This document shows positions 7,157-43,905 of a DNA stretch of 51,523 nucleotides, piece after piece; the first letter of the stretch is position 1; each line of letters starts with the position of its first letter. The translations under genes were made by a program, and so were the position numbers. A model generated the notes under the pieces. The model was not told the origin of the DNA. It searched no databases and saw nothing but the letters and a program-made list of their open reading frames with translations. This DNA is from Chiloscyllium plagiosum. Lineage: Eukaryota. The stretch covers positions 63,967,905-64,019,427 of the forward strand of contig NC_057718.1 in NCBI RefSeq assembly GCF_004010195.1, written 5' to 3'.

Positions 7157-8800
7157 ACAAAAAAAAACTGTAGATGCTGGAATCCAAAGTAGCAGGCAGG
7201 AGGCTGCAAGAACACAGCAAGCCAGGCAGCATCAGGAGGTGCAGAAGTCAATGTTTTGGGTATAACCCTTCTTCAGGACTGGGGGGTAAGGTTGAAGGGA
7301 GCTGCAGATAAAGGGGGTATGGGGGAGGGTTTTGGGAGGGGAGANNNNNNNNNNNNNNNNNNNNNNNNNNNNNNNNNNNNNNNNNNNNNNNNNNNNNNNN
7401 NNNNNNNNNNNNNNNNNNNNNNNNNNNNNNNNNNNNNNNNNNNNNNNNNNNNNNNNNNNNNNNNNNNNNNNNNNNNNNNNNNNNNNNNNNNNNNNNNNNN
7501 NNNNNNNNNNNNNNNNNNNNNNNNNNNNNNNNNNNNNNNNNNNNNNNNNNNNNNNNNNNNNNNNNNNNNNNNNNNNNNNNNNNNNNNNNNNNNNNNNNNN
7601 NNNNNNNNNNNNNNNNNNNNNNNNNNNNNNNNNNNNNNNNNNNNNNNNNNNNGTTGCACAGATGGTACCTGGGGGTTCAGGGGAGGTCGGTGGGGAGAAT
7701 GTCTCAAACCAAGGATTGTTGAAGGCAGAGAGGGGTGGGAAGGGGAAGATGTTCTTGGTGGTGGGGGTCTAGTTGGAGTTGGTGGAAGTATTTCAGGATG
7801 ATACGTTGGATGCGGAGACTGGTGGGGTGGAAGGTGAGGATTGCGTTTATTGCGTTTGGAGGGATGAAGTTTAGAGCAGTGGAACGGGGAATGGAGGTGG
7901 TACAGTGGATGGCTGTCTGGATGACAGAGGAGGAAAAGCACGTTGTTCAAAATAGGTGGACATCTGGGATGTCTCCTCGTCCGAGGACTGGAAAAATGGG
8001 TTGGAGCGCTTGCAGGATACTGGGAGGGAGGAGGTGTAGGAGGTAGTTAGGGGAGTCTGTGGGTTTATAATAAAAGTCTGATGGTAGACTGTCGCTGGAG
8101 ATGAAAGCAAAGAGGTCAAGAAAGGGGAGAGAGTTGTCTGAGATGGACCATGTTAAGTTAAGAGCGGATGGAAGTTGTTGGCAAAGTCGATGAACTGCTG
8201 CAGTTCAATCTGGGTGCAGGATGCAGCACCAACGCAGTCATTGATGTAACGGCAGAAGATTTGGGGAACAGTGCCTGTGTAGGTACTAATGAGGGACTGT
8301 TTAACATAGCCGACAAACAGACAGGGATAACTAGGGCCCATCCGCATGCCCATGGACACCCCCTGGATTTGGAGGAAATGGGAAGAGTTGAAGGAAAAGT
8401 TGTCAAGGGTGAGGACTAGTTCTGTGAGGCAGAGCAGGGTATTGGTGGAAGGGGACTGGATGGCTTTGTAGAAGAGGAGGAAGCTGAGGGCCTGAAGGCC
8501 GTCGTTGTGGGCATGGACGTGTATAAGGACTGTACATCCATTGTGAAGATAAAGCACTGGGGGCTAGGGAACTGGAAGTTACTGAAGAGGTGAAGGGCGT
8601 GGTTAGTGTCCCGGATGTAGGGGGAGAGGATGGAATTGAGATCGGAAGAAATGAGTTCGGTGGGGCAGGAGCATACGGAGGCAAGGGGTTGGCCTGGGCA
8701 GGTAGGTTTGTGGATCTTGTGGAGCAGGTAGAATCGGGCAGTGTTGGGGCTGGGGGACTATGAGGTCAGAGGTGGTGGAGAGGAGATTACCAGAAAAGTG
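7157..8800 (-). mobile_element. Penelope-like element, decayed RT and thumb region plus 3' terminal repeat (assembly gap 7345-7651)
   Basis: Minus-strand translation: NFSFNSSHFLQIQGVSMGMRMGPSYPCLFVGYV..RYINDCVG..FIDFANNFHP, then WSISDNSLPFLD..YYKPTDS. The terminal repeat carries a decayed hammerhead core at ~7247-7278. Confidence 0.92.
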
Positions 8801-9099
8801 CAAGACATGCTGGATGTTGAAGTAATTTGTCCATTCCATTTGTGCTGGTTTCTAGGGAAGACTGTGCACACGTTTGCATAGAGTTTACAGGAAACCAGCT
8901 GCTTCAAATAACGGAGATCATTGGGATATTCCATGGATTCAATAGATTCAAACTATTCTTGTTCTAATAGAACATCATTGGTAGATTCCACAGCATCATG
9001 TTCAGTCCTATTCAGCTGGAGCTATCCAAGTTTATAATGAATCCTACTCGAATAACAAATACTCTTCCTGGTTTTTATTGATTCTTTAATTTTGCTCAG

Positions 9100-9955
9100 C
9101 AAAGAAGGTTACCTCAGGTTACAACGGGATCTTGATCAGATGGGCTAATGGGCAGATGGAGTTCAATTTAGATAAATGTGAGGTGCTGCATTTTGGAAAA
9201 GCAAATCAGACCAGGACTTATACATTTAATAGTAAGGTCCTGGGAGGTGTTGCTCAACAAAGAGACCTTGGAGTGCAGGTTCATAGCTCCTTGAAAGTGG
9301 AGTCGCAGGTAGATAGGATAGTGAAGAAGGTATTTAGTATGCTTTCCTTTATTGGTCAGAGTATTGAGTACAGGAGTTGGGAGGCCATGTTGCGGCTGTA
9401 CAGGACATTGGTTTGGCCACTATTGGAATGTATTACAATTCTAGTCTCCCTCCTATCAGAAGGATGTTGTGAAACATGAAAAAAAATTTACAAGGATGTT
9501 GCCAGTGTTGGAGGGTTTGAGTGATAGGGAGAGGCTGAATAGGCTGGGGCTATTTTCCCTGGAGCGTTCAAGGCTGAGGGGTGACCTTATAGAAGTTTAT
9601 AAAATTATGAGGGGCATGGATAAGGTAAATAGACAAGATCTTTTCCCAGAGTGGGAAAATCCAGAATGAGAGGGCATAGGTTTAGGGTGAGAGGGCATAA
9701 ATTTAAAAGGGATCTATGGGGCAACATTTTCACGCAGAGGGTGGTGCATGTATGGAATGAGCTGCTAGAGAAAGTGGGGGAGACTGGTACATTTACAACA
9801 GAAAAGAGGGATCTGGATGGGTATATGTATAGGAAGAGTTTGGAGGGATATGGGACAAGTACTGGGATATGGGACTAGATTAGTTTAGGATATTTGATTG
9901 GGCATGGACTGAAGGGTCCGTTTCTGTTATGTATATCTTTATGATTTTATGACTC
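9100..9955 (+). mobile_element. 5'-truncated CR1 LINE
   Basis: QMEFNLDKCEVLHFG..QRDLGVQVHSSLKV..LYRTLV..RLRGDLIEVYKIM..FTQRVVHVWNEL, followed by a (TTTATGA)-type tail. Confidence 0.95.
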
Positions 9956-10002
9956 AATTATGGCTTGTTTGCTGACACAAGCATTCATTACGGCACTCAA
10001 TT

Positions 10003-10810
10003 AAAGCAAAACACTGTAGATGTTGGAAATCTGAAACAAAAATAGGAAGTGCTGGAGAAACTCAGCAGGTCTGGCAGTGTCTGTAGAGAGAAAAACAGTG
10101 TTAATATTCCAAATCTAGTATGACTTCTTCATTTATAGGTCTGGGCATCACTGACTAAACCCATCCCCAATTGTCCTGGAGAAGCTGCTGGTGAACTGCC
10201 TTCCTGAACTGGTGTCGTCCATGTGTTGTAGGTAGATGCTCATGCTGTGAGGAAGCATCAGGATTTGACTCAGCAACACTGAAGGAACGGTGAAATATTT
10301 CCATGTCATGATGGTGAGTGGCTTGGAGGGGATCTTGCAGGGGGTGTTGTTCCCATGTCTCTGCTGCCCTTGTCCTTCCACTAGGGATCATGGGTTTGGA
10401 AGGCACTATCTCAGAAGATTTGGTAAATTCCTGCACCACGTCTTGTAAATGGTATACAGTGCTGCTACTGATCATTGGTGATGGAGGGACTGAATGTTTG
10501 TGGATGTGGAACCAAGAAAGCAGGCTGTTTTGTCATGAATGGTGTCAAGAATCCAGAACATTGTTGGAGTTGCACTCATCCAGGCCATCATACCACTGCC
10601 TTGTGCCTTTTGGATGATGCACAAGCTTTGAGGAGTCATGAGATGAGTTAATCCCGACAGGAATCCTAATCTCTGACCTGCTCTTGCAGCCACTAATTTA
10701 TATAGCTGGTCCAGTTCAGTTTCTGGAGTCATTAGATTTAAAATGTTAACTCTGTTTCTCTCTCCACACATGCTGCCAGATCTGCTGCCTCTCTCTCTAG
10801 CATGTTCTTT
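10003..10810. mobile_element. Inverted pair of PLE terminal repeats (10003-10134 minus, 10722-10810 plus) split by a LINE insertion
   Basis: CAGCAGGTCTGGCAGTGTCTGTAGAGAGAAAAACAGTGTTAATATT is mirrored by AATGTTAACTCTGTTTCTCTCTCCACACATGCTGCCAGATCTGCTG. A decayed TGAAGAAGTCATAC core lies on the minus strand. Confidence 0.75.
10135..10721 (-). mobile_element. 3' part of a CR1/L2-clade LINE (same family as 2689-2849)
   Basis: Minus ORF AARAGQRLGFL..LTHLMTPQSL..KAQ..WMSATPT..LDTIHDKTACFLG is a post-RT region. The 3' UTR ends ..CAATTGGGGATGGG..GATGCCCAGACC. Confidence 0.85.
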
Positions 10811-11202
10811 TTTTATTTCCCTGATACGTTTCATCCATGTCACCTACAATGCAACCTAATTCAACTTCTGCTTCAGTTTTCGATATATCAACAGATTCTG
10901 GCTGGATCCAGCTGACCCAGAACAAGTATTGGAGACTGCAGCAAGATGTGTGTCTGTGTATGAGGGAAATAGTGGGAGTGAAAGTGTTAGTGAGAAAGGG
11001 GGAGTTACAGAAAGTGAGCAAAAGTATGTGTATGAGAATATATGTGTGAGATAGTGAGACAGATAGGGCATGAAGGACAAAAGTGTGCATGTGTGAGATA
11101 GTGAGAGAGAGGGGGAATGAAAAAGTAAAAGTATGTCTATGTGGGAAGTATATGAGTAAGAGGCAATTTGTGTGAGAAGGTGTCTGTATAAGAAAGAGAG
11201 TT

Positions 11203-13620
11203 AAAAATCACACAACACCAGGTTGTGGTCCAACAGATTTATTTGGAAGCACTAGCTTTTGGAGCACTACTCCTTCATCAGTTGCTATGGAGCAGGATCA
11301 TAGGACACTGAATTTACAGCAAAAGACTACAATGTCAAACATCTGAAATCATATATTGAACAAACCTAGATTACTGTTAAGTCTTTCATCTTTTAGAATG
11401 GGTTGCAGGTTTTGGTTCATTAATACGTAAATCCCAGGACTTCTTTTAAGTCACATTCTCAAGATAATTTAAGGCTTTATAAAAAAGGTGACATTTCCTG
11501 GGAAATTGTTGGAAACAAGGCAGGGCAGGTGACTGAGGTGTCAGTGGGGGAACAGTTTGGGGCTAGTGACCATAATTCTATTGGTTTTTAAAATAGTAAT
11601 GGAAAAGGATAGACTGGATCTGAAAGTTGAAGTTCTAAATTGGAGGAAGGCTAAATTTGACGGTATTAGGCAAGAACTTTCAAAAGCTGTTTTGGGGCAG
11701 ATGTTTGCAGGTAAAGGGATGGCTGGAAAGTGGGAAGCCTTCGTAAATGAGATAACCACAGTCCAAAGATAATATATTCTGTTAGGGTGAAAGGCTGGTA
11801 GGTGTAGGGAATGCTAGATTGACTAGAGAATTTGGGGTTAAGAAATAGAAGGAAGCATATGTCAGGTATAGACAGGATAGATTGAGTGAATACTTAGAAG
11901 AGTATAAAGGCAGTAGGAATATACTCAAGAAGGAAATGAGGGCAAAAAGGGGCCATGAAATAGCTTTGGCAAATAGAGTTAAGGAGAATCCAAAGGGTTT
12001 TACAAACACATTAAGGACAAAAGGATAACTAGGGAGAGAATAGGGCCCCTCAAAGATCAGCAAGGCGGCCTTTGTGTGGAGCAGCAGGAGATGGGGGAGA
12101 TACTAAATGAGTAATTTGCATCAGTGTGGAGAAGGACATGGAAGATATAAAATGTATGGAAATAGATGGTGACATCTTGAAAAATCTTACAGAGGAGGAG
12201 GTCTTGAAATGCATAAAGGTGGATGAATGCCCAGGACCTGATCAGGTGTACCCAAAAACGCTGTGGGAAGCTAGAGAAGTGATTGCTGGGCCCCTTGATT
12301 TGTATCATCGATAGTCAAAGGTGAGGTGCCGGAAGACTGAAGGTTGGCTAATGTGGTGCCACTGTTTAAGAAAGGTGGTATAGGCAAGCCAGGGAACTAT
12401 AGACCGGTGAGCTTGACCTCGGAGGTGGGCATGTTGCTGGAGGGAGTCCTGAGGGACAGGATTTACATATCTTTGGAAAGGCATGGACTGATTAGGGATA
12501 GTCAACATGGCCTTGTGCATGGGAAATCATGTCTCATGAACTTGATTGAGTTTTTTAAAAGTAACAAAGAGGATTGATGAGGGCAGAGTGGAGGACATGA
12601 TCTATATGGACTTCAGTAAGGCATTTTGGGAAAGCAAATCTGAGCAGGACGTAGACACTTAATAGTAAAGTCCTAAGGCGTGTTGCTGAACAGAGACCTT
12701 GGAGTTCATAGCTCCTTGAAAGCTGGGTTGCAGGTAGTTAGGATAGTGAAGAAGGTACTTGATATGCTTTCATTTTGGTCAGAGTATTGAGTTACAGGAG
12801 TTAGGAGGTCATTTTATGGCTGTACAGGATGTTGGTTAGGCCACTTTTGGAATTTTGCATGCAATTCTGGTCTCTTTCCTATTGGAAGGATGTTCTGAAA
12901 CTTGAAAGAGTTCAGAAAAGATTTGCATGAATGTTGTTAGGGTTGGAGGATTTGAGCTATAGGGAGAGGCTGAACAGGCTGGGGCTGTTTTCCCTGGAGC
13001 ATCGGGGGCTGAGAAGTGACCTTATAGAGGTTTAAAAAATCATGAGGGGCATGGATAGGATAAATAGACAAAGATTTTCCCCCCGGGGTGGGAGTGTCCA
13101 AAACTAGAGGGTATAGGTTTAGGTTGAGTGAGGAAAGAAATAAAAGAGACCTAAGAGTCAACTTTTTCACGCAGAGAGTGATGCAGGTATGAAATGGGCT
13201 GCCAGAGGAAGTGGTGGAGGCTAGTACAATTGCAACATTTAAAAGGCATTTGGCTGGGTATATGAATAGAAAGGGTTGAGAGGGATATGGGCCAAGTGCT
13301 GGCAAATGGGACTAGATTAGGTTAAGATATCTGGTCAGCATGGGCGAGTTGGACCAAAGGGTCAATTTCCGGGCTGTACATCTCTATGACTCCATGACTC
13401 TATCTCAGCTGAGACAATGTATTAAAGGTGTGAGGTTAGAACCTGTCTTTATCCCAATCTTCAATTTGACTGGTTTTATTTCCAAAGTAGGAATTTATAA
13501 AATGTTATGTGAATTGACTGTAAGAGAGAAAGAGAGACAGAGATAGACAGAGAGAGAAAGAGAGAGACTTTGTATGTAAGTGAGAAGGTGAGTGTGTGAA
13601 TCCTGAGAATGAGCTGGAAA
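11203..13620 (-). mobile_element. Terminal region of a second PLE family (11203-11494 and 13402-~13620), split by a CR1
   Basis: 11203-11282 is close to the reverse complement of 42341-42422 (hammerhead-type core CTGATGAAGGAG..CTCC.AAAGCTA). The sequence appears to resume across the CR1 at AAAAAAGGTGACAT|..|ATCTCAGCTGAGACAATG, followed by a GA/GT-rich tract. Confidence 0.75.
11495..13401 (+). mobile_element. 5'-truncated CR1 LINE with internal deletion of the RT core
   Basis: LNWRKAKFDGIRQEL, KCIKVDECPGPDQVYP, ANVVPLFKKG..PGNYRPVSLTS, DSQHG. DFSKA is joined directly to FGKAN at ~12625. (TCTATGAC) tail. Confidence 0.95.
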
Positions 13621-15425: not shown

Positions 15426-15778
15426 GGATGGCACTGTGGCTCAGTGGTTAGCACTGCTGCCTCACAGCATCAGGGACCTGGGTTCGATTCCAGCCTTGGG
15501 CGGCTGTCTGTGTGGCGTTTGCACATTCTCCCTATGTCTGCATGGGGTTTCCCCTTAGTGCTCCAATTTCCTCCCACAGTCCAATGATGTGCAGGTTAGG
15601 TGAATTGGCCATGCTAAATTCCCCATAGTGTTCTGGGATGTGTAGGTTTGGTGCATTAGTCAGGGGAAATGCAGAGTAATAGGATAGGGGAATGGATCTG
15701 GGTGGGGTACTCTTCGGAGTGTCAGTGTGGATTTGTTGGGCCAAATGGCCTGTTTCCACATTGTAGAGACTCTAAGAT
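15426..15778 (+). mobile_element. HE1 SINE
   Basis: TGGCTCAGTGGTTAGCACTGCTGCCTCACAG, GGTTCGATTCC, V-domain and CR1-like tail. Confidence 0.95.
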
Positions 15779-16016: not shown

Positions 16017-16495
16017 CTGTAACTTGTAACTGTGTATCTTTACCTGTCATGGCGTAAATAGACCTGTAACTGTGTAACTGTACCTAAAATCATATAACTA
16101 TACTTGCAACAGTGTAAATGCACCTGTAAACATGTACCTGTAATGGTGTAAATGTACCTGTAATTGTGTAACTGTACCCATATAACTGCACCTGTAACTT
16201 TGTATTTGTACCTGTGTTAACCATACCTGTAATGGTGTAAATGCACCTATAACTGTATAACTGTATCCATAGCAATGGTGTACAAGTACTGTAAGTTTGT
16301 AACTATTTCTGGAACTGTATAACTACACTTGTAATGGTGTAAATGCACATGTAATTGTATAGCAAAGCTACATAACTATGCCTGTAATGGCATAAACATA
16401 CCTGCATTTCTGCAACTGTATTTGTAATGGTGTAAATACACTTGTAACTATGTAACTGTATCTTTAACTGTAACTGTATTTATAACATGGTAAAT
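16017..16495. repeat. Degenerate minisatellite of ~20-bp monomers (CCTGTAATGGTGTAAATGCA and CCTGTAACTGTGTAACTGTA types)
   Basis: GTAATGGTGTAAAT recurs at 16140, 16229, 16331 and 16424, interspersed with GTAACTGT units. Confidence 0.85.
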
Positions 16496-16747: not shown

Positions 16748-16837
16748 TAAAAACAATAACTGCAGATGCTAGAAACCAGATTCTGGATTAGTGGTGCTGG
16801 AAGAGCACAGCAGTTCAGGCAGCATCCAAGGAGCAGT
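16748..16837 (-). mobile_element. 90-bp PLE terminal fragment with a perfect 14-bp flanking duplication
   Basis: CACCATCAGGTTGG at 16734-16747 and 16838-16851. The insert matches the reverse complement of the PLE end at 21850-21900. Confidence 0.9.
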
Positions 16838-18436: not shown

Positions 18437-19858
18437 CAGAGGAATCTCGATTATCTGAATATCAATTATCCGAATTTTGGATTATCCAAAGAAGATCTCA
18501 ATGTCCTAAAGAAACATTACATCAAAGAGGTGTTTCCAACACTGATTGCGTCTTTTGTTTAAAATGAACCCAGCTTACTGAAATGCTGCCAAGAACAGTC
18601 CTGGACATCAATGGGAGCCCAGGCACTGTCTCCAAGTGACTGACTGCCTGCCTTGTCTCTCTCCCCACACTTTCCCTGGAGTTCTCCACAAGAGTGTACC
18701 CAAACCCTACTACCCCAGATAATCTCTCCAACATTGTCCTGTACAGGGCTGAGTGGGAATTTGTCAAAAAGTTGCAGTATAAAGTTGTGTGTGTGGTTGT
18801 GTGTGTGTGTGGGGCTGTGTGTGTGTGGGGCTGTGTGTGTGTGGGGCTGCGTGCATGTGGGGCTGTGTGTGTGTGGGGCTGTGTGTGTGTGGGGCTGTGT
18901 GTGTGTGGGGCTGTGTGTGTGTGGGGCTGTGTGTGTGTGGGGCTGTGTGTGTGTGGGGCTGTGTGTGTGTGGGGCTGTGTGTGTGTGGGGCTGTGTGTGT
19001 GTGGGGCTGTGTGTGTGTGGGGCTGTGTGTGTGTGGGGCTGTGTGTGTGTGGGGCTGTGTGTGTGTGGGGCTGTGTGTGTGTGGGGCTGTGTGTGTGTGG
19101 GGCTGTGTGTGTGTGGGGCTGTGTGTGTGTGGGGCTGTGTGTGTGTGGGGCTGTGTGTGTGTGGGGCTGTGTGTGTGTGGGGCTGTGTGTGTGTGGGGCT
19201 GCGTGCATGCGTGTGTGTGTGAGGGGCTGTGTGAGCGTGTGCGTGTGTGGAGGAACTGTGTGTGTGGGGGGGCTCTGTGTGTGTGCACACGTGTGTGTGT
19301 GGNNNNNNNNNNNNNNNNNNNNNNNNNNNNNNNNNNNNNNNNNNNNNNNNNNNNNNNNNNNNNNNNNNNNNNNTGTGTGGAGGGGGTGGTGTGTGTGTGC
19401 GTGTGTATGTGTGTGGGGGGGGTGCTGTGTGTGTGTGTGTTGGATGTGGGTTGTGGGGTTGGATGAGGTTGGAGGGGGTGGACTGGGGCAGGTGTGGGGG
19501 TGGATGGGGTGGGCAGGAGTGGGGATGGATGGGGAGGCGGGGCTCTCGCGCGGTGTGTTGCTGCCCTTCTCCTGAACGGGGAGCAGACTTAGCAAGTGCT
19601 CGATGTGTCAATCCCATTGAACTTGGGGGGTTGGGGGAGGCTTCAGCAATGCTGCAGGTACCTTACACACAACTGTGTCTCTGCTCAGACACAAACCCTG
19701 AAACAGAGAGAGGGAGTAAGGCAGGCAGAGTGAGGAGAAAGGAAACTTCAGAAAACCCTGTACCCCCGAGGAGAGGCATTGAATCAATTAACTGAATAAT
19801 CAATTATCCAAACTAAATACTGCCCACCCATTTTGTTCGGATAATTGAGGTTCCTCTG
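18437..19858. mobile_element. Non-autonomous Tc1/mariner-superfamily (pogo/Tigger-like) element or MITE
   Basis: TA target duplication (18435-18436, 19859-19860). 23-bp TIRs CAGAGGAATCTCGATTATCTGAA and revcomp CAGAGGAACCTCAATTATCCGAA with 3 transitions. Sub-terminal ATTATCC repeats. No transposase. Confidence 0.92.
18787..19440. repeat. 16-bp minisatellite (GGGGCTGTGTGTGTGT)n, ~24 near-perfect copies at 18811-19200, degenerating into (GT)n; gap 19303-19373
   Basis: Read directly from the sequence. Confidence 0.97.
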
Positions 19859-21564: not shown

Positions 21565-21900
21565 GGAGTCCACTCCCCTTCCCCCACCTCATCCTAGTTT
21601 CTAACCTCCAGCTCAACACTGTCCCCTTGTCTCGTCCGGACTTGTCCGACCTGCCCAGCTACTTTTCCACCTATCCACTCCACCCTCTCCTCCCTGACCT
21701 ATCACCTTCATCTCTTCCCCCACTGACCTATTGTACTCTATGCTACTCTATCCCCAATCCCACCCTCCTCTAGCTTATCTCTCCATGCTTCAGGCTCTCT
21801 GCCTTTATTCCTGATGAAGGGCTTTTGCCCGAAACGTCGATTTTGCCTGTCCTCGGATGCTGCCTGAACTGCTGTGCTCTTCCAGCACCACCGATCCAGA
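21565..21900 (+). mobile_element. PLE 3' terminal region
   Basis: C-rich tract, then CTGATGAAGGGCTTTTGCCCGAAACGTCGA and GGATGCTGCCTGAACTGCTGTGCTCTTCCAGCACC. Homologous to 40500-40847, which follows a GIY-YIG domain. Confidence 0.9.
21806..21843 (+). ncRNA. Minimal type I hammerhead ribozyme motif (intact core) in the PLE terminal repeat
   Basis: CTGATGA 21811-21817, extra A, stem II GGGC-TTTT-GCCC 21819-21830, GAAA 21831-21834, CGTC (ACGT palindrome; predicted GUC cleavage after 21838). Stem I is weak (ATTC/GATT). Confidence 0.7.
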
Positions 21901-23398: not shown

Positions 23399-23860
23399 GA
23401 GTCGAAAAGTGTGGTACTGGAAAAGCACAACAGGTCAAGCAGCATCCGAGGAGTAGGAGAGTCGATGTTTCAGGCATAAACCCTTCTTCAGGAGTGTGGC
23501 TGGGGTATGGGGTGGGGTCTGGTTGGAGAATAGGGCTGAGAGATAAATAGAAAGGTGGGAATGGGGGCAAGATTGCTGGGAGGGTTATAAGTGGATGTAG
23601 GTCAGTGGTGATGGTGAAAGGTTGGGGGGGTGTGGAGCAGATAGGTGGGAAGGAAGATGGATAGTTGGACATGTCAAGAGGGCAGTGCTGAGTTGGAAGG
23701 TCTACCACATACACAAAATCCACAACCTGACTGTCCCATTCAACCCATCATCTCCGCGATCCAACTGTCCAACTCGGTTGATGTCTGATCTACTGTGCTT
23801 TTCCAGCACCACACTTTCCAACTCTGATTTCTCCAGCATTTGCAGTTCTCACATTCTCTC
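23399..23860. mobile_element. PLE fragment with inverted termini
   Basis: Minus-strand terminal repeat (GAAAAGCACAACAGGTCAAGCAGCATCC..GATGTTTCAGGCATAAACCCTTCTTCAGGA) followed by a plus-strand end (CTGTGCTTTTCCAGCACC..CAGCATTTGCAG). Flanked by GG.AC.AGTAGAT on both sides. Confidence 0.85.
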
Positions 23861-24633: not shown

Positions 24634-24946
24634 GGTGGGCGGCACGGTGGCACAGTGATTAGCACTGCTGCCTCACAGCGCCAGAGACCCCGGTTCAATT
24701 CCCACCTCAGGCGACTGACTGTGTGGAGTTTGCACGTTCTCCCTGTGTCTGCGTGGGTTTCTTCCGGGTGCTCCGGTTTCTGCCCACAGTCCAAAGATGT
24801 GCAGGTAAGGTGAATTGGCCATGCTAAATTGCCCGTAGTGTTAGGTAAGGGGTATGGGTGGGTTGCACTTCGGCGGATCGGTGTGGACTTGTTGGGCCGA
24901 AGGGCCTGTTTCCACACTGTAATGTAATCTAATCTAAATCTAATCT
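24634..24946 (+). mobile_element. Young HE1 SINE
   Basis: Full A/B boxes and V-domain, many retained CpGs, (TAATC)n tail. Confidence 0.96.
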
Positions 24947-24969
24947 TTAAAAGAATAAGGAGTGTTCTT

Positions 24970-26446
24970 AGAGTCATAAAGTCATAGAGATGGACAACAT
25001 GGAAACAGACCCTTTGGTCCAACTCGTCCATGTCAACCAGATACCCCAATCCAATCTAGTCTCACCTGCCAGCATCCAGCCCATATCCCTCTAAACCCTT
25101 CCTATTCATATACCCATCCAGATGCCTTTTAAATGTTGCATTTGTACTAGCCTCCACCACATCCTCTGGCAGCTCATTCCATACACGTACCACCCTCTGC
25201 ACAAAAAAATTGCCCCTTAGGTCTCTTTTATATCTTTCCCCTTTCACCCTAAACCAATGCCCTCTAGTTCTGGACTCCCCCACCCCAGGGAAAAGACTTT
25301 GTCTATTTATCCTACCCATGTCCCTCATGATTTTATAAACCTCTATAAGGTCACCCCTCAGCCTCTGACACTCCAAGGAAAACAGCTCCAGTCTATTCAA
25401 CCTCACCCTATAGCTCAAATCCTCCAATCCTGGCAACATCCTTGTAAATCTTTTCTGAACCCTTTCAGGTTTCGCAACATCTTTCCGATAGGAAGGAGAC
25501 CAAAATTGCATGCAATATTCCAAAAATGGCCGAACCAATGTCCTGTACAACCACAACATGACCTCACAACTCCTGTACTCAATACTCTGACCAGTATAGG
25601 AAAACATACCAAATGCCTTCTTCACTATCCTATCTACCTTCGACTCCACTTTCAAGGAGAAAGTAGAACCAGTTCACCAAAGTCTCCAAAGCATATAAGT
25701 CCTGTTAAGATTTGCTTTTCCAAAATGCAACACCTCACATTTATCTAAATTAGACTCCATCTGCCACTCCTCAGCCCATTGGCTCATCTGATCAAGATTC
25801 TGTTTTAATATGAGGTAACCTTCTTTGCTGTCCACTACACCTCCAATTTTGATGTCATCTGCAAACTTACTAACTATATCTCTTATACTCACATCCAAAC
25901 CATTTATATAAATGATGAAAAGTAGTGGACCCAGCACTGATCCTTGTGACACTCCACTGGTTACAGGCCTCCAGTCTGAAAAACAACCCTCCACCACCAC
26001 CCTCTGTCTTCTACCTTTGAGCCAGTTCTGTATCCAAATGGCTAGTTCTCCCTGTTTTCCATGAGATCTAATGTTGCTAACCAGTCACCCTTGGGGAACC
26101 TTGTCAAACACCTTAATGAAGTCCACATAGATCACATCCATCGCTCTGTCCTCATCAATCCTCTTTGTTATTTCTTCAAAAAACTCAATCAAGTTTGTGA
26201 GACATGATTTCCCACACACAAAGCCATGCTGACTATCCCTAATCAGCCTTTGCCTTTCTAAATACATGTACACCCTGTCCCTCAGGATTCTCTCCAACAA
26301 CTTGCCCACCACTGACGTCAGGCCCACTGGTCTATAGTTCCCTGGCTTGTCGTTACCACCTTTTTAAAATAGTAGAGCTACGTTAGCCAACCTCCAGTCT
26401 TCTGGCACCTTACCTGTGACTATCGATGATACAAATATCCCAGCAA
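24970..26446 (-). mobile_element. Relatively young 5'-truncated CR1 LINE (RT largely readable)
   Basis: WRLANV, DSQHGF.CGKSCLTNLIEFFE, VTSGVSQGSVLGPLLFIIYIN..SKFADD, and a 197-aa open C-terminal frame at 25062-25655. Confidence 0.97.
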
Positions 26447-28189: not shown

Positions 28190-28880
28190 GTTATGATCTC
28201 AGATGTAGCTCACACTGGACAAGTCAGAATCCAGAATGAAATCTGACTTCATAGATCATAAGTTTAATTTTAATAGTTGTTTAGTGTGGTGATTAATCAC
28301 TGAAAACATACACATGAGGCTGCAAATGATCTTTAACAAAGTAACAGATTTTTATTATTGAAAATAAATCAAATAAAGCTATCAGTTACATATAAATGAT
28401 AATTCTGAAAGGTCTTTAAAAGAATAGCAAAATATAATTTCAACCTTTTTTCCCATAAAATCTATCTTTACTTAGCTGGATTTTCTCAACCTCTCCTACT
28501 TGGTCAGCTGTGATAGTTATATTACTTATTACTGAATCTGTTGCCATGAAACCTTTTCAGTTTTGATTGTCTAAACCTCTTTTGAGTTCTAACAACTTGA
28601 AGACTTCTTTAAAAACGCTCACAGCTTAGAAGTTTCACGAAACAAAGCCACGTTTACTGAAGTAACTGATTCCCTCAGAACGGAAATATTGATTCCTTTG
28701 CGAGGAGGAACCTATTCTCTTTTCTGAGCTGAACTTCTGATTCTTCTGAAGTCACAGGCTAAACTAATGACCTCGATCCAATTTTCTCTGTCTGTTGTAA
28801 ATTCAGCAGCATAAAAAATGTATTCATTAGCAACAGACGTGTGCTGCTAGCCACTGGACTGGGTCACGTGTATTCATGAT
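28190..28880 (-). repeat. Probable solo LTR
   Basis: Starts GTTATGATC, the inverse of the GATCATAAC end at 48601-48609. GGACAAGTCAGAATCC mirrors GGAATCTGACTTATCC (48539-48554). AATAAA on the minus strand. Confidence 0.55.
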
Positions 28881-30045
28881 GACAGAATGGTAGACATGGT
28901 CTATATGGACTCCAGCAAGGCATTCAACAAGGTTCTTCATGGTGGACCGATTAGCAAGATCAGATCACATGGAATCCAGGGAATGTTAGCCATATCATTA
29001 CAAAATTGGCTTGAAGGCAGGAGACCAAGGCTGGTGGTGCATGGTTTTTTTTCGGACTTGAAGCTTGTGACCAGCGGTGTGCAGTAAGGATCGGTGCTGG
29101 GCCAACTGTCTTTTGTCATTTATATAAAATGATATAAATGATCAGAATGTGAATGTAGGAGGCATGGTTAGTATGTTTGTAGACGACAGCAAAACTGATG
29201 GTGTAATGGACAATGAAGAAGGTTATCTTAGAGTATAACAGGACCTTGATCAGATGGGCTGATTTATTTATCAGAGGTGTTGCATTTTTGAAAGGCAAAT
29301 TGGAGCAGGACTTGTACAGGGGGAGCGTTGATGAACAAAGAAATTTTGAGATGAATGTTCATAGTCCTTTGAAAGTGAAGTCACGATAGACAGGGAAATG
29401 AAGAAGGCATTTGGTACACTTGCCTTTATTGGTCAGTGCATTATGTTTAGGAGTTGGGAGGTCATGTTGTGTCTGTACAGACATTGGTGAGGCCACTTTT
29501 GGAAGACTGCATTCAATTCTGGTCTCCCTGCTATCGGAAAGCTATTGGCAAACTTGAAAGGGTTCAAAAAAGATTTACAAGCATGTTGCCAGGGTTGGAG
29601 GGTTTGAGCTACAGGGAGAGGCTGAAAACACTGGGAATTTTTCCCAGGAGCATCGGAGGTTGAGGGGTGACCTTATAGAGGTGTATAAAACCACGAGGAG
29701 CATGGATAGGATAAATAGCCAAGGTCATTTTCCCAGGGTAGGAGAGTCCAAAACTAGAGGGCATAGGTTTAAGGTGAGAGGAGAAAGATTTCAAAGAGAT
29801 CTAAGAGGCAACCTTTTCTCATAGAGGGTGGTGTGTGCATGGAATGAGCTGTCAAAGGACATGGTGGAGGCTGATACAATTAAAACATTTAAAAGGCATC
29901 TGAATGAGTACATGAATAGGAAGGATTTAGAGCCATATGGGCCAAATGCTGGCAAATGAGATTAAGATTAATTTAGGATAAGTTTGTCAGCATGGACAAG
30001 TTGGACCTAAGGGTCTGTTTCCATGCTGTACAATTCTGTGACTCC
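28881..30045 (+). mobile_element. 5'-truncated CR1 LINE
   Basis: VDMVYMDSSKAFNKV.H, VTSGVQ*GSVLG, FVDDSK, LVRPLLE..IQFWSP, plus 3' UTR and tail. Confidence 0.95.
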
Positions 30046-30477: not shown

Positions 30478-31031
30478 GTCAGTCATTGAGTCATAGTCAT
30501 AAATGAAAACAGACCCTTCGGTCCAACTAATTGTTTAATCTTTTCAAACTTATCCACGCAGACCAAGTTTGCCAAACTTAACTGGTCTCACTTTCCCATA
30601 TTTGGCCCATATCCCACTAAACATTTCCTATTCATATACCTATCCAAATGTCTTTTAAGTGTTGAAACTGTACCTGCATCTATTGCTTCATTTGGCATTT
30701 CATTCCAAATACAAACCTCTCTCTCTCTGTGAAAACGTTGTCTCTTGGGTCACTTTTAAAACTTTCTCTTCTCACCTTAAAACTATGCCCCCTAGCTTTG
30801 AACTCCCCACCCTCAGGAAAAGACCTTTACTATTTACCTTATCTATGCCCCTCATGAACCTGTAAAAGGTCACCCCTTAACCTCCTACTCTTCAATGAAA
30901 AAAGTCCCAGCCAATCCAGCCTATCCTTTTAGCTCAAACCCTCCAATGCCAGCAACATTCCGGCAAATTCTTTTTGAACCCTGTTCAATTTAATAATATC
31001 CTTCTTATAGCAGGGTGAACAGAACTGTACA
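30478..31031 (-). mobile_element. CR1 LINE 3' portion running into an assembly gap
   Basis: Tail at 30478-30500. VQFCSPCYKKDIIKLNRVQK on the minus strand. Confidence 0.93.
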
Positions 31032-31531
31032 NNNNNNNNNNNNNNNNNNNNNNNNNNNNNNNNNNNNNNNNNNNNNNNNNNNNNNNNNNNNNNNNNNNNN
31101 NNNNNNNNNNNNNNNNNNNNNNNNNNNNNNNNNNNNNNNNNNNNNNNNNNNNNNNNNNNNNNNNNNNNNNNNNNNNNNNNNNNNNNNNNNNNNNNNNNNN
31201 NNNNNNNNNNNNNNNNNNNNNNNNNNNNNNNNNNNNNNNNNNNNNNNNNNNNNNNNNNNNNNNNNNNNNNNNNNNNNNNNNNNNNNNNNNNNNNNNNNNN
31301 NNNNNNNNNNNNNNNNNNNNNNNNNNNNNNNNNNNNNNNNNNNNNNNNNNNNNNNNNNNNNNNNNNNNNNNNNNNNNNNNNNNNNNNNNNNNNNNNNNNN
31401 NNNNNNNNNNNNNNNNNNNNNNNNNNNNNNNNNNNNNNNNNNNNNNNNNNNNNNNNNNNNNNNNNNNNNNNNNNNNNNNNNNNNNNNNNNNNNNNNNNNN
31501 NNNNNNNNNNNNNNNNNNNNNNNNNNNNNNN

Positions 31532-32075
31532 GCCTGACATTGGTGTTGGGCAAGTTGTTGGAGGGAATCCTGAGGAACAAGGTTTACCTGTATTTGGAAA
31601 GTCAAGGACTGATTAGGGATAGTCAGCATGGCTTTGTGTGTGGGAAACCATGTCGCACAAACTTGATTGAGTTTTTTGAAGAAGTAATGAAGAGGATTGA
31701 TGAGGGCAGAGTGGTAGATGTGATCTATATGGACTTCAGTAAGGCATTCAGTAAGGTTCCTCGAGGGAGACTGGTTAGCAAGGTTAGATCTCACGGAATA
31801 CTAGGAGAACCAACCATCCGGTTACAGAACAGGCTCAAAGGTAGAAGACAGAGGGTGGTGGTGAAGAGTTGTTTTTCAGACTGGAGGAGTGCCACAGTGA
31901 CCAGTGGACTGCCACAAGGATCGGTGCTAGGTCCACTACTTTTCGCAATTTATATAAATGATTTGGATGTGAGCTTAAGAAGTATATTTAGTAAGTTTGC
32001 AGATGACACCAAAATAGGAGGTGTAGTAGACAGCAAAGAAGGTTACCTCAGATTACAACAGGATCTTGATCAGAT
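31532..32075 (+). mobile_element. CR1 RT segment (open frame)
   Basis: DSQHGF..NLIEFFEEV..DFSKAF..VTSGLPQGSVLGPLLFAIYINDLD..SKFADDTKIGG..LQQDLDQ. Confidence 0.96.
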
Positions 32076-32445
32076 GGAGAAAGTGATGTCTGCAGATGCT
32101 GGAGATCAGAGCTGAAAATGTGTTGCTGGAAAAGCGCAGCAGGTCAGGCAGCATCCAAGGAGCAGGAGAATCGACGTTTCGGGCATGAGCCTTTGGAATG
32201 CTTTGGAGAAAGTGAGGAGTGCAGTTGCTGGAGATCAGAGTTGAGACTGTGGTGCTGGAAAGGCACAGCAGGTCAGGCAGCATCTGAGGAGCAGGAGAGT
32301 ATGGAGCGGATATATAGGAAAGGTGATAGACAGGTCAGAGGGCGGTGCCAAGTTGGAGGCTTGGGAGTGAGATAATGCGGGATGGGGGGAAATGAAGAAA
32401 CTGGTGAAATCCACATTGATCCCATGTGGTTGCAGGGACCCAATT
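32076..32445 (-). mobile_element. PLE terminal repeats in partial tandem
   Basis: Two successive copies of GGAGAAAGTGA..TGCAG.TGCTGGAGATCAGAG..GCTGGAAA.GC.CAGCAGGTCAGGCAGCATC at 32076 and 32205. The first includes GACGTTTCGGGCATGAGCC. Confidence 0.9.
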
Positions 32446-33940: not shown

Positions 33941-34125
33941 GAGCTGAAAATGTATTGCTGGAAAAGCGCAGCAGGTCAGGCAGCATCCAAGGAGCAGGAG
34001 AATCGATGTTTCGGGCATGAGCCCTTCTTCAGGAATTCCTTAATTCCTGAAGAAGGGCTCATGCCCGGAACGTCGATTCTCCTGCTCCTTGGATGCTCCA
34101 GCATCTGCAGTCCTCACTTTCTCCT
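33941..34125. mobile_element. Palindromic PLE-derived mini-element with hammerhead cores on both strands
   Basis: Arms 33982-34037 and 34042-34097 are reverse complements (54/56) around a CCTT spacer. Confidence 0.93.
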
Positions 34126-38494: not shown

Positions 38495-40127
38495 TCTCTA
38501 GCAACTGCTGTGAGGTTTCTTGCTGAAGAGACATGAAATGTTAAGGATCTGGAATTGGGGCTGGATGAATTTCAGATTATTCGGGAGGTGGAGGGGATTA
38601 TTGAGAGGCGGTATTACAGGGAGGTAGTCACACCTCAGGTAAAAGAAGAAGGTAGATGGGTTACCAACAGAGGATGGAAAGGGAACTGGCAGGCAGTGCA
38701 GGAATCCCCTGTGGCTGTTCCCCTCAACAACAAGTACACCATTTTGGATACCGTTGTGGAGGGATGACTTACCAGGGGTAAGCAATGGGGCACAGAATCT
38801 GTCCCTGTTGCTCAGAAGGGAAGGGGGAACAGGAGCAGAGCTTTATTCATTGGGGACTCCATACTTAAGGGGGATAGATAGAGGTTCTGTGGGAATGAGA
38901 GAGACTCCCAGGTGCCAGAGTCCACGATATCTCTGATCGTGTTTTCAGGATACTTGAGGGGGAAAGGGAGCAGCCCCAAGTTGTGGTCCACATTGGCACC
39001 AATGACATAGATAGGAAGAGAGATGGGGACTTAAGGCAGAAATTCAGGGAGCTAGGATGGATGCTTAGAGCTAGAACAAATGGAATTGTTTTCTCTGGTT
39101 TGTTGCCGTGCCACATGCTAGTGAGGCGGGGAATAGGGAGAGAGAGGAGTTGAACACATGGCTACCGGTATGGTGTGGAGGGAGGGTTTTGGATTCCTGG
39201 ATAGTTGGGGCTCTTTCTGGCTCTCTCTGCAAACAGGATGGTCTACACCTGAACCCAAGGGGTACCAATATCCTGGGGGAGAAGCTTACTCATGCTCTTC
39301 AGGAGAGTTTAAACTAATTCAGTAGGGGGATGGGTACCTAAATTGTAGTTCAAGTATACAGGAGGTTGAGAGTAGTGAGGAAATAAGATGTTAAGGTGGC
39401 AAGAAGGCACTGGCAAGCAATAAGTTGCTTTGAAGTGTGTCTACTTCAACGCCAGGAGCATCCGGAATAAGGTGAGTAAACTTGCAGCATGGGTAGGTAC
39501 CTGGGATTTCGATGTTGTGGCCATATCCAGACATGGGTAGAGCAAGGACAGGAATGGTTGTTGCAGGTTCCGGGATTTACATGTTTCAGTAAGAACAGAG
39601 AAGATGGTAAAAGGCGGGGGGGGGGGAAGGGCGCGGGGTAGCATTGTTAGTCAAGGACAGTATTACAGTTAAGGACTCATCTACTGAGGTAGTATTGGCT
39701 AAGATTAGAAACAGGAAAGGACAGGTCATCCTTTTGGGAGTTTTTATAGGCCTCTGAATACTTCCAGAGATATAGAGGATAGGATCACAAAGATGATCCT
39801 CAATAGGAGTCAGAGTGACAGGGTAGTTGTCATGGGAGACTTTAACTTTCCAAATAGTGACTGTGAATACTAATATTCAAGTACATTAGATGGGTCAAGA
39901 GCAAGAGTTATTTGCTGGGGGAAAAGCAATTACGATGCAATTAGACAAGATTTAGGATGCATAGGATGGGGAAGGGAACTGCAGAGGATGGGCACAATAG
40001 AAATGTGGAGTTTATCAAGGAACAGCTACTGTGCGTTCTTGATAAATATGTACCTGTCAGACAGGGAGGAAGTTGTTGAGTGCAGAAGCATTGGTTTACT
40101 AAGGAAATTGAATCTCTTGTCAAGTTT
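38495..40127 (+). mobile_element. CR1 LINE 5' half (ORF1 with esterase-like domain, APE endonuclease)
   Basis: RWVTNRG..QAVQESPVAVPLNNKYTILD, IGDSIL.G.DR, VVVHIGTNDI, DGLHLNPRGTNILG, CVYFNARSIRNK, GVFYRP, VVMGDFNFP. Confidence 0.95.
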
Positions 40128-40847
40128 TGCATGCCCATACCTCCCCCCTTACTTCCCTCCAAGGCCCCAAGGGATCCTTCTATATCCACCACAAATTCAC
40201 CTGCACCTCCACACACATCATTTACTGCATTTGCTGCACCCGATGTGGCCTCCTCTATATTGGGGAGACAAGCCGTCTACTTGCGGAACGTTTCAGAGAA
40301 CACCTCTGGGACACCTGGACCAACCAACCCAACCGCCTTGTGGCTGAACACTTTAACTCCCCCTCCCACTCCACCAAGGACATGCAGGTCCTTGGACACC
40401 TCCATCGCCAGACCATAGCAACATGACGGCTGGAGGAAGAGCGCCTCATCTTCCACCTAGGAACCCTCCAACCACAAGGGATGAATTCAGATTTCTCCAG
40501 TTTCCTCATTTCCCCTCCCCCCACCGTGTCTCAGTCCCAACCCTCGAACTCAGCACCACCTTCCAAACCTGCAATCTTCTTCCCGACCTCTCCGCCCCCA
40601 CCCCACTCCGGCCTATCACCCTCACCTTAATCTCCTTCCACCTATCACATTTCCAACGCCCCTCCCCCAAGTCCCTCTTCCCGACCTTTTATCTTAGCCT
40701 GCTTCGCACACTCTCCTCATTCCTGAAGAAGGGCTCATGCCCGAAACGTCAATTCTCCTGCTCCTTGGATGCTGCCTGACCTGCTGCGCTTTTCCAGCAA
40801 CACATTTTCAGCTCTGATCTCCAGCATCTGCAGTCCTCACTTTTTCC
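40128..40847 (+). mobile_element. 5'-truncated Penelope-like element: GIY-YIG endonuclease and 3' terminal repeat
   Basis: FTCTSTHIIYCICCTRCGLLYIGETSRLLAERFREH..VAEHFNSPSH, followed by a C-rich tract, hammerhead core and terminal repeat. Confidence 0.96.
40718..40755 (+). ncRNA. Minimal type I hammerhead ribozyme motif (intact core)
   Basis: CTGAAGA 40723-40729, extra A, stem II GGGC-TCAT-GCCC 40731-40742, GAAA 40743-40746, CGTC 40747-40750. Stem I is poor. Confidence 0.65.
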
Positions 40848-41755
40848 TTAGTAAATTTATGGACAACACTCAGGTCGGTACAGTCATGGATAGTGCTGAA
40901 GGATGTTGTAGGTTACAGAGGGACATAGGTCAGCTGCAGAGCTGGGCTGAGAGGTGGCAAATGAAGTTTAATGCAGAAAAGTGTGAGGTGATTCACTTTG
41001 GAAGGAGTAAGAGGAATGCAAAGCACTGGGCAAATGGTAAGATTCTTGGTAATGTAGATGAGCAGAGAGATCTTGGTGTCCACGTACACAGATCCCTCAA
41101 AGTTGCCACCCAGATTGATAGGGCTGTTAAGACGATATTAAGAAGGTGTGTTAACATTTATTAGTAGAGGGATTGAGTTTCAGAACCATGCGGTCATGCT
41201 GCAACTGTACAAAACTCTGGTGCAGCCACACTTGGAGTATTGCATGCAGTTCTGGTCACCGCATTATAGGAAAGATGTGGAAGATTTGGAAAGGGTTCAC
41301 AGAGCAGATGTTGCCTGGGATGGATTGAAGGTCTTACAAGGAAATGTTGAGGGACTTGAGGCAGTTTTTGTTAAAGAGACAAAGGTTAAGAGGTGACTTA
41401 ATTGAGACATATAAGATAATCAGAGGGTTAGATATGGTGGACAGTGAGAGCCTTTTTCCTCAGATGGTGATGGCTCGCACGAGGGGACATAGTTTTAAAT
41501 TGAGGGGCGATAGATATAGGACAGATGTCAGAGATAATTTTGTTACTCAGAGATTGTAGAGGTGTTGAATGCACTGCCTGCAAAAGTAGTAGACTCACCA
41601 ACTTTAAGGGCATTTAAATGGTTATTGGATAGGCATATGGACGAGAATGGAATAGTGGAGGTTAGATGGGTTTCAAATTGGTTTCACAGGGTGGCACAAC
41701 ATCGAGGGCCGAAGGGCCTGTACTGCATTGTAATGTTCTATGTTCTATATTCTAT
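40848..41755 (+). mobile_element. CR1 LINE 3' part, (TTCTATG)n-tail subfamily
   Basis: SKFMDNTQVG..WAERWQMKFNAEKCEVIHFG..LYKTLVQPHLEYCMQFWSP..TRGHSFKL, and tail TGTTCTATGTTCTAT. Confidence 0.95.
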
Positions 41756-42294
41756 AAATGCTCACAAGAAATCTGATTGTTTTGCAGAGGGTTGGCAATA
41801 GTCTTTGTTTAGAAATTGGAAATATTGGAAATGTTCAGTGTGTCTGGCAGTATCTATGCAGAGAGAAACAGCAGTTGGTTAACCTTTAACAAGAATAGTG
41901 CAGATTGTAGACCTGAAGCATTATCTGCATGAATGCCTTCTGGGTTGATGAGTTTTTTCAGCATTTTCTCTTTATGTTTCAAATTAGATCTCCTATTACA
42001 TGCTCCCTGGTGTGCTTTTATGAGTGTGGTTAGTTTCAATTTTAAATGAGAAAATATTTGTTATACGTTGCAGTTTCTTTTGGCTAACGATATCACTTAT
42101 ATGGATAGAATTAGTACATTATTGTTGGTGAATTGATTGGTGCTAATTTGCTGGAATGTTTTAAACTTGGAAGTGAAGTCATCAATTACGTGCTATTAGA
42201 GTATGCCATTGTTAGTTCCAAGTATTCCAATTTGTACAGATGACTCTTGTTTGTAGTGTCTGTGAGATTCTGGGTTTTTTGGACATTTTTACAG

Positions 42295-42425
42295 CTTTTG
42301 CTATAAATTCTGTGTGTTACAATCTTATACTCCACAGCCACCTAATGAAGGAGCAGCGCTCTGAAAGCTAGTGCTGCCAATTCAACCTGTTGGACTATAA
42401 CCTGGTGTCGTGTGATTTTTAACCT
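42295..42425 (+). mobile_element. Terminal repeat of the second PLE family with a mutated hammerhead core
   Basis: CAGCCAC-CTAATGA-A-GGAGCAGCGCTCT-GAAA-GCTA-GTGCTG; inverse of 11203-11282. Confidence 0.8.
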
Positions 42426-42629
42426 TGTCCAAATATTTATTGGGTTCAAGTAAGCCGAGCTGATTGCATTAGATGAACAAACAAGTAGTGTTTGTCTGAC
42501 AAAGTTGTGGTTATAAACCATACTGAAAACTGGGCTTTTGGTGGATTTTTTGAATAGAGCTATAAAGAACAAAATCCAAGATTGGTTAATTTGTATAAAC
42601 ATTTCAGCCCCATTATGACTATTGTTCCC

Positions 42630-42787
42630 AATTCCCACCTGGGAACCCTCCAACCACAAGGGATGAACTCAGATATCTCCAGTTTTCTCATTTCCCCTCC
42701 CCCCACCTTGTCTCAGTCAAATCCCTTCTCCTGCTCCTTGGATGCTGCCTGACCTGCTGCGCTTTTCCAGCAACACATTGTCAGCTC
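42630..42787 (+). mobile_element. Internally deleted PLE 3' fragment (hammerhead removed)
   Basis: Matches 40451-40540 joined directly to 40753-40815. Confidence 0.9.
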
Positions 42788-43145
42788 TTATCCAAAGTGG
42801 GACAAAGTGAGCAGATTATTGCTTAACAAGTGATAACACTGTTGATGATGCCTTCCACGTTTTCACAGATGATCAGAAAATGAATGGAGGTATCATCTGG
42901 ATTCCTGCCTGCGTGCCCAATATTTGGCATGAAACCCAAATTTCTGTTGACAATCCAACCTGCTGCAGGGGATCTGATTGGCTACACTGAGCTGGTGGGA
43001 GTAGTGGGTTGGAGGGGTGGGAACAGCTGGAGTCTGTTTGGGGTGATGAAGTGTTTGTGTGGGAGAGCAGCAAATGAGTGTAGGAGGAAGGGGTACCCTG
43101 TCAACAGCAAATCGCAGAGAAAACCTTAAAATCTACTTAGGGCTT

Positions 43146-43470
43146 TATCATAGAATCCCTACATTGAGGAAGCAGGCCATTTGGCCCATCAAGTCCACAC
43201 TGACCCTCTGAAAGACATCCCATGCAGAGCCACTCCCAATCCCAACCTCATAATCCTATATTTCCTGTGGGTAATCCACCTACACATCCCTGAACACTAT
43301 GGGCAATTTAACATGGCCTAACCTGCACATCTTTGGATTGTGGGAGACCCAGACCCACATAAACATGGGGAGAATGTGCAAACTTCACATAGTCATCCAT
43401 GGCTGGAATCAAACTCAGGTCCCTGGTGCTGTGAGTCAGCAATGCTAACCATCCAGCTACCATGTCGCCC
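43146..43470 (-). mobile_element. HE1 SINE
   Basis: Reverse complement of the A/B boxes, V-domain and tail. Confidence 0.9.
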
Positions 43471-43711
43471 ATATTGGTTGGAGTTTTATGGCTTTCCATC
43501 TCCCAATAGTAGGCAGCGAATTTACTTCTTACCTATTGCTGAGAAAGTTTCCCAGAGTCAAGAATGCATCAGGGAGCCATCCAGATGTAACCAGTTTCCT
43601 GGCTTCCTGCCTCCAAGCCTGCCATCACAAAGCTCAGTGTATGATTATGCATTAGTATGGGGAGCTAGCTATGTGAGATATTGATTGGAAATTAGCAGGG
43701 CATTAGACAAT

Positions 43712-43905
43712 TGTTGAAAGAACACAGCAAGCCAGGCAGCATCAGGAGTTGGAGAAATCAATGTTTTGAGTATCAACCCTTCTTCAGGACTCAAAGAAAT
43801 GTTAATACCCAAAATGTTGATGTCTCCACCACTTGCTGCCTGACTTGCTGTGTTCTTCCAGCCTCCTGTTTGTCTGCTTTGGATTTCAGCATCTGCATTT
43901 TTTTT
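43712..43905. mobile_element. Older palindromic PLE terminal-repeat pair
   Basis: GAAGAACACAGCAAGCCAGGCAGCA-like arm ..ACCCTTCTTCAGGA, mirrored by ..ACCCAAAATGTTGA..TGCTGCCTGACTTGCTGTGTTCTTC. Same family as 7157-7280. Confidence 0.85.

Follow-up and report, generated by a model that had tools for sequence, protein, structure and literature searches.

Minimal hammerhead ribozymes in the terminal repeats of Penelope-like elements of Chiloscyllium plagiosum and a putative origin of their short copies

The window analyzed here, a stretch of 51,523 nucleotides (nt) of Chiloscyllium plagiosum (GCF_004010195.1, NC_057718.1, positions 63,967,905-64,019,427 of the forward strand), contains dispersed remnants of Penelope-like retrotransposons with hammerhead ribozyme cores in their terminal repeats (Table 1). 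The ten entries listed in the original prediction, made from the sequence alone, corresponded to 11 cores (34004-34074 counts double) and all were found in place. A core descriptor requiring CUGANGA and GAAA boxes with at most one mismatch and a stem II of at least 4 base pairs (bp) was matched by nine of the 11, at 7276-, 11281-, 21811+, 23491-, 34032-, 34047+, 40723+, 42342+, and 43787- (positions of nucleotide C3), so that the hammerhead assignment was partly confirmed, failing for the core at 10100-, too decayed for the descriptor, and for that at 32172-, which has no CUGANGA box. One extra, unrelated match was obtained at 20832-, and 20 shuffles of the window gave a mean of 1.35 matches, none with the helix III palindrome. 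The boxes were perfect in only four cores and were intact together with a self-complementary helix III in only two of the 11 (21811 and 40723, the latter with its first stem I pair lost), the damage being mostly CpG decay in CCCGAAACGTCG. The core at 21811-21838 was the sole one equal to its family majority, including the U.U mismatch that the family carries in stem I.

Terminal-repeat families were labeled A to F, where A and B are mostly counted jointly (A/B) and D is the family with an AGCT palindrome. A profile search of the window recovered 17 terminal-repeat pieces, 12 of which cover the core and six of which were new (10726+, 16837-, 23763+, 32299-, 42726+, and 43794+). The hammerhead models of Rfam gave no match in the window, and its microRNA matches at 34006-34073 coincide with the inverted pair at 33942..34125, which folds into a 57-bp hairpin (-122 kcal/mol, z -18.9). 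Joins of the GIY-YIG frame end to the post-cleavage part of the repeat that delete the hammerhead were observed at 42639-42792 (+), 32205-32444 (-), and outside the window at L183:4267 (-), with a short direct repeat in two of these cases.

Table 1. Penelope-like remnants and terminal-repeat copies in the window (RT, reverse transcriptase; UTR, untranslated region).
Feature	Position	Strand	Evidence and remarks
5'-truncated Penelope-like element	7165..8809	-	tblastn and blastn against locus L086; descriptor; profile
Parts of this element: RT frame (7653-8809), broken; assembly gap (at 7345-7652); 3' UTR, core, and tail	within 7165..8809	-	
Core of this element, GGGT/ACCC family	7250-7276	-	G12 and helix III mutated
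Old decayed family E terminal-repeat copy	10048..10131	-	Profile E 5.7e-13; catalytic boxes unrecognizable, no descriptor match
Partial family E terminal-repeat copy, absent from the original prediction	10726..10787	+	Profile search
Copy of the AGCT family (D), 3' UTR of 213 nt, short 3' end	11199..11494	-	Descriptor, profile; core 11253-11281, G12 mutated
Terminal-repeat piece beginning behind the core, without ribozyme	16760..16837	-	Profile, homology to L086
Family B copy, 3' UTR of 237 nt, short 3' end	21574..21892	+	Descriptor; core 21811-21838
Terminal-repeat copy	23409..23503	-	Descriptor, profile; core 23464-23491, in which CpG decay has disrupted the helix III palindrome
RT scrap and a terminal repeat lacking the core; inverted structure, oriented away from the 23491 copy	23701..23858	+	Homology, profile
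Family A copy with tail, interrupted within the core so that the CUGANGA box is missing	32076..32194	-	Homology, profile
GIY-YIG frame end and 3' UTR joined to post-cleavage repeat, core absent	32205..32444	-	Homology; in tandem, before the 32194 copy
Head-to-head inverted family A pair	33942..34125	both	Core 34032 (-, helix III mutated), core 34047 (+, A13 mutated)
5'-truncated element: GIY-YIG remnant, 3' UTR, core, tail	40133..40848	+	Core 40723-40750; Pfam GIY-YIG 1.8e-05 (40112-40423); 82% to L086 over 736 nt
Copy of the AGCT family (D), short 3' end	42295..42424	+	Descriptor, profile; core from 42342, G5 mutated
GIY-YIG frame end fused to the post-cleavage repeat at a short direct repeat, with loss of the core	42639..42792	+	Homology
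Second head-to-head inverted pair	43711..43900	both	Core 43787 (-, G12 and helix III mutated); decayed partner from 43794 (+), absent from the original prediction

Very probably these motifs are the terminal-repeat minimal hammerheads of several families of Penelope-like retrotransposons, likely of the Neptune clade, mostly mutated and likely functionless at this locus. Coding remnants precede two of the window copies in sense (RT at 7653-8809 on the minus strand and GIY-YIG at 40133-40564 on the plus strand). Elsewhere in the genome, a sense core lay downstream of the RT match in 17 of 20 loci picked by RT similarity, 160-180 nt behind the end of an intact frame; two of the remaining three had assembly gaps there and the third had a core found by profile, the 18th. 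A sense core was likewise identified in 16 of a further 20 loci picked by their N-terminal motif. In locus L086, a single frame encodes RVT_1 (1.2e-08) and, at the C-terminal end, GIY-YIG (2.9e-04, narrowly missing the curated cut-off), and its translation contains a CX4CxxC linker between RT and endonuclease as well as a CCHH motif. GIY-YIG matches upstream of the core were in sense versus antisense for 49 versus 9 of 213 A/B copies, 2 versus 0 of 9 C copies, 6 versus 2 of 54 E copies, and 4 versus 0 of 18 F copies. The prediction of minimal type I hammerheads from several Penelope-like families is supported. Loci L155, L162, L169, and L197 belong to a further family, F, whose stem II is longer and begins with GTTAC and which has no member in the window.

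The 3' ends of the copies fall into two peaks about 35 nt apart in all families tested (A/B, D, E, and F), with 78 and 80 of 212 A/B copies and 29 and 28 of 81 D copies ending at the two points; RNA reads from one poly(A) single-cell run end at the same two points. This is the Penelope tail, an optional extension of 30-40 bp published as a signature of these elements (PMC11167929, PMC8557442). In the main family, two insertion end points follow the core at ~+92 and ~+128, and further on come a start codon at ~+170 and then the frame itself; this core and its end points are met again 160-180 nt past the RT/GIY-YIG frame. Start codon and frame were found downstream of the core in 23 of 30 loci, one of which reads on into the RT N-terminus. 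The start-codon region past the tail is rare, with 734 genome matches versus 69,815 for the core. An intact full-length element with two direct repeats was not found among the 70 loci examined, where assembly gaps occur and both halves were seen separately. A CX2-5CxxC linker and a CCHH motif define Neptune, the linker is also present in Nematis (PMC8557442), and a study that included vertebrates found only Neptune and Poseidon in them (10.64898/2026.07.22.740005). By its linker and CCHH motif, the shark element likely fits Neptune (or Nematis).

The original prediction also inferred a very large population from the density of motifs, and the population was found while the density proved not to be special. 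One 28-nt core pattern had 69,815 exact matches in the genome (3.56 Gb for pattern counts) and one AGCT-family pattern had 5,318, the reversed controls giving 0 in both cases. Sampling the genome at even intervals, in 80 stretches of 10 kb with a total of 765,625 bases other than N, gave 47 intact motifs versus 0-1 in 10 shuffles, together with 189 core-covering copies, which extrapolates to ~210,000 intact motifs (154,000-278,000) and ~840,000 remnants (725,000-969,000) genome-wide, about one remnant per 4 kb. The window itself is ordinary: 12 core-covering copies were observed versus 12.5 expected from the sample, ruling out a special cluster, and two intact motifs versus 3.1. Of the published counts compared, the highest reach 9,000 for minimal motifs (Xenopus, PMC4209133) and 126,247 for canonical motifs (axolotl, PMC7229834), and coelacanth has about 4,000 minimal motifs (PMC4209133). 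One 10-kb stretch, L138, contains six intact AGCT-family cores, well above the average of that family.

Comparison of the family majorities revealed constant core boxes with covarying stem I, stem II, and helix III. Stem I variants comprise ATTC/GAAT, AGTC/GACT (as in window copy 7276), AGTT/AACT, CAC/GTG, and CCA/TGG, compensatory change being seen across families also in this stem, and the helix III palindromes ACGT and AGCT were both recovered as family majorities, as had been predicted. Covariation of stem II, also predicted, holds for GGGT/ACCC and GGAGC/GCTCC, which show compensatory change, whereas GGGC-TTTT-GCCC and GGGC-TCAT-GCCC differ in the loop only. An excess of core conservation across families, the absence of which had been named as a refuting result, is present, and since boxes stay constant while stems covary, the fold has been selected in the master lineages. 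Stem I is only 3-4 bp long without the canonical loop contacts and is mismatched in A and B, a U.U mismatch occupying the third pair in 67 of 108 and 71 of 97 copies of the two commonest groups; in the GAAT subfamily, four perfect stem I pairs were present in 52 of 60 copies. This young subfamily, recognizable by a CTGT loop, by GAAT behind the cleavage point, and by its perfect 4-bp stem I, was seen at L121, L125, L133, L137, L189, L195, and many RT loci. Among dispersed copies, G12, which lies inside a CpG, decays like the CpGs of the flanks (24 of 114 vs. 40 of 172). The poly(A) library showed no pile-up of read ends, such libraries being unable to show cleavage ends.

Same-family neighbors within 600 nt were arranged as 41 head-to-head pairs versus five same-strand pairs among 250 core-covering copies, and an adjacent inverted partner was present for 43 of 122 A/B copies and 17 of 38 D copies. 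The transcript of a head-to-head pair contains one sense core within a long hairpin, not a dimer. Joints in DNA runs that could have revealed empty-site alleles were swamped by repeats.

The 5' ends cluster close to the core. About two thirds of the A/B copies stop within 17 nt upstream, comprising 42 of 43 inverted copies (within 17 nt) and 25 of 63 others (within 13 nt), three of these 67 having no upstream alignment. The mode lies 4 nt before C3, and RNA reads from dispersed copies break off at the same place, at 40719, although family B reads diverge there as well. A pattern allowing three foreign bases at -4 matched 5,359 places, and in a hand count of the 100 matches listed the first foreign base was G in 67, A in 18, and T in 15, compared to G 21 and A 19 (G:A near 1) in a control one base further up (Fisher p 0.004). 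Among solo copies with unrelated flanks, G was present in 10 of 12 at -4 versus 11 of 37 (p 0.002), and the flanks of the G-bearing copies are unrelated. An extra G marks full-length L1 insertions as the trace of a copied cap (PMC11702581). These counts cover families A/B and the GAAT subfamily. Breaks at the cleavage site numbered 286, compared to 171 one base before and 354 two bases after, making them more than 10 times rarer than the 5,359 ends at -4, which were counted with a different pattern. As the 5' ends show no pile-up at the cleavage site, the copied RNAs were likely uncut, and the junctions point to capped, uncut RNA front ends as the likely templates of many copies. An apparent excess of cleavage-site ends in the perfect-stem subfamily (135 vs. 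29, with a control pattern that requires a CpG) was rejected, most listed rows being inverted junctions with stem I microhomology or point mutants; about 24-27 of 100 listed rows, and five of 17 in a second set, had unrelated flanks. One exact pattern for a fusion of U6 to the cleavage site had two matches, both unrelated in appearance.

The short copies probably originated at the front end of the element's own RNA. On balance, we also lean to a transcription start at the stem I 5' arm, whose TCATTC we take to be an initiator-like motif, so that the messenger RNA would open with the ribozyme. The element endonuclease would cut the target and RT would start at one of the two internal end points, both of which are present in both repeats; in vitro precedent for this inferred step exists in the anole element. 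A start in the 3' repeat would yield 5'-truncated copies with UTR or coding remnants such as those at 7276, 11281, 21811, 40723, and 42342, and a start in the 5' repeat would run off at the capped RNA 5' end after 95-135 nt. Such run-off copies would have their first nucleotide 4 nt ahead of the core and would often carry a G derived from the cap, and priming at both ends of a double-strand cut would produce head-to-head pairs such as 34032/34047 and 43787/43794. Internal priming on the leader may in this way have generated hundreds of thousands of cap-marked 95-135-nt 'strong-stop' insertions, giving a motif count above any in the literature compared. Cleavage would then act as a decapping switch of the element on its own RNA and not as a template-making step. 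The RNAs that were copied had probably not been cut, and the ribozyme is probably kept by selection on active master elements, not on dispersed copies.

Several observations weigh against parts of this account. In family B the excess of G is less marked (of 100, 28 are G, 17 A, and 55 C), the GAAT subfamily has as many A as G (45 each, with 10 T), its A count being inflated by palindromic junctions, and the G at inverted junctions can be templated by the other arm. Within family A, non-CpG core sites had changed less than the flanks (5 of 470 vs. 28 of 858, p 0.015), which may reflect unresolved subfamily differences or some selection on copies. The anatomy was assembled from partial copies, and all 20 loci chosen by N-terminal motif contain assembly gaps. 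The GIY-YIG link of family D is weak by count (6 sense versus 6 antisense of 80), a remnant at a like distance being present in three D copies.

All short copies could instead be ordinary 5' truncations of the 3' repeat without any capped front end, in which RT stalled at the stem II hairpin or at an upstream pyrimidine tract and the pairs arose by self-priming or fold-back. Severe 5' truncation is usual in these elements (PMC8557442), self-priming is the published alternative for palindromic junctions (PMC3846280), and microhomology occurs at many junctions; stalling, however, gives no reason to expect that solo copies would favor one base position and carry an extra G there, or that this same repeat would be followed by a start codon, and we consider this explanation improbable. 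Less probable still is the original suggestion of retrozyme-like non-autonomous elements, in which tandem transcription, dimer self-cleavage, circularization, and reinsertion would have produced the short copies. Retrozymes do derive from Penelope repeats with one cartilaginous fish positive (10.64898/2026.07.22.740005), and internally deleted mini-elements with at least two same-strand cores 200-430 nt apart were identified at L272, L275, L278, L290, L301, and L302. Against this stand the preponderance of head-to-head over same-strand neighbors (41 vs. 5), the lack of any same-strand pair of whole cores in the window, the short stem I without loop contacts, the rarity of the start-codon region relative to the cores, and junctions that do not lie at the cleavage site. 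Neighbors are inverted, not tandem, and the short copies match the ends of autonomous elements letter for letter, so that the retrozyme reading fails for the bulk of the copies and for this window. The mini-elements, with two to four same-strand cores (e.g., L275:1370-2270), are the best candidates in the genome for dimer cleavage or retrozyme birth.

The third alternative, that dispersed copies are host regulatory ribozymes cutting pre-mRNA or releasing small RNAs, is barely credible. Repeat-derived reads were present on both strands in the poly(A) single-cell run (2,953 reads) and the non-CpG core positions are slightly better kept than the flanks, but only two of the 11 window cores are intact, solo minimal hammerheads did not cleave in vitro (PMC4209133), and the anole hammerhead required the protein of its element (PMC11167929). 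The intronic setting envisaged at the outset was not supported, as a Pfam scan of the 69 window frames and the longest 145 of 385 flank frames, which could miss short exons, revealed no host exon within the window, and RNA depth was zero on the single-copy bins of the window in 2% of one poly(A) run. Cleavage of a pre-mRNA is likewise not supported, most cores being mutated and the inverted pairs placing only one sense core, locked in a hairpin, on the transcript.

Four known systems come closest. The minimal hammerheads of metazoan Penelope-like pseudo-long terminal repeats (PMC4209133) share the type I layout, an unpaired base between 9 and 10.1, the G10.1-C11.1 pair, the palindromic 15.2-16.2, a short stem I, many families, and mostly single motifs with some close opposite-strand pairs. 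Differences are the stem II of 4-5 bp in most families and the U.U mismatch in stem I of the two commonest here, and the counts (~4,000 in coelacanth and ~9,000 in Xenopus versus the estimated 210,000 intact motifs); the consulted part of that study names no shark genome, and its figures S2-S5 may hold shark examples. The Poseidon element PAc of Anolis carolinensis (PMC11167929) similarly has a hammerhead at the RNA front; its RT starts at either of two internal sites, by which the optional tail is defined, it mainly copies RNA that has not been cut, and both target strands are cut and extended. PAc belongs to the Penelope/Poseidon clade and has its start codon inside stem II, whereas the frame of the shark element includes a Zn-finger linker and opens ~170 nt past the core. 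In the consulted part of the PAc account no mention of cap-marked short copies was found (PMC11167929).

Non-long terminal repeat retrozymes (PMC7229834; 10.64898/2026.07.22.740005) are also non-coding, hammerhead-bearing, related to Penelope repeats, and of very high copy number. They form head-to-tail tandem arrays of 150-450 nt, each unit with a hammerhead of the canonical type, in which stem I has 6 bp and the loops make contact, and they have circular RNAs (PMC7229834), in contrast to the solo or inverted minimal motifs of the shark, which are identical to the ends of coding elements. Full-length LINE-1 (long interspersed nuclear element 1) shares the extra G at the 5' junction, where it marks a whole 6-kb element (PMC11702581) and here would mark internally primed copies of 95-135 nt. 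Copy number and cap-marked short copies are what goes beyond the published accounts found; for the latter no published report was found in a search that did not extend to the papers' supplements, which may hold shark examples. What the hammerhead does in Penelope elements has yet to be settled (PMC8557442), and the ~800,000 dated insertion junctions of this genome allow the model to be tested from sequence as to RNA start, uncut template, and inverted end formation. The GAAT (perfect) and GATT (mismatched) stem I subfamilies form a natural pair for cleavage assays, and double-stranded RNA could potentially arise on a large scale from the inverted pairs.

The nearest gene found was Brachyury (T-box transcription factor T) on the minus strand at L115:133-5808, ~40-46 kb beyond the right end of the window, with a best PDB match of its exons at E 1.5e-61. 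The window further contains fragments of LINE-type RT in both orientations (9090-9900, 12298-13402, 24969-26436, 28872-29983, 30544-32076, 45377-46869, and 51158-51522, with RVT_1 7.8e-15 at 25677-26084), which we take to be CR1-like, and dispersed transfer RNA-like short interspersed elements (SINEs) at 3935-4232, 15430-15775, 24641-24931, and 50637-50827 that presumably resemble the shark HE1 SINE. Two arrays were also present, a 16-bp minisatellite of 32 copies at 18786-19285 and a degenerate 20-bp array at 16021-16467. At L119:5839-6747 (-), a 303-amino-acid frame with a ZCCHC3-type RNA-binding domain and zinc knuckles is likely a LINE ORF1.

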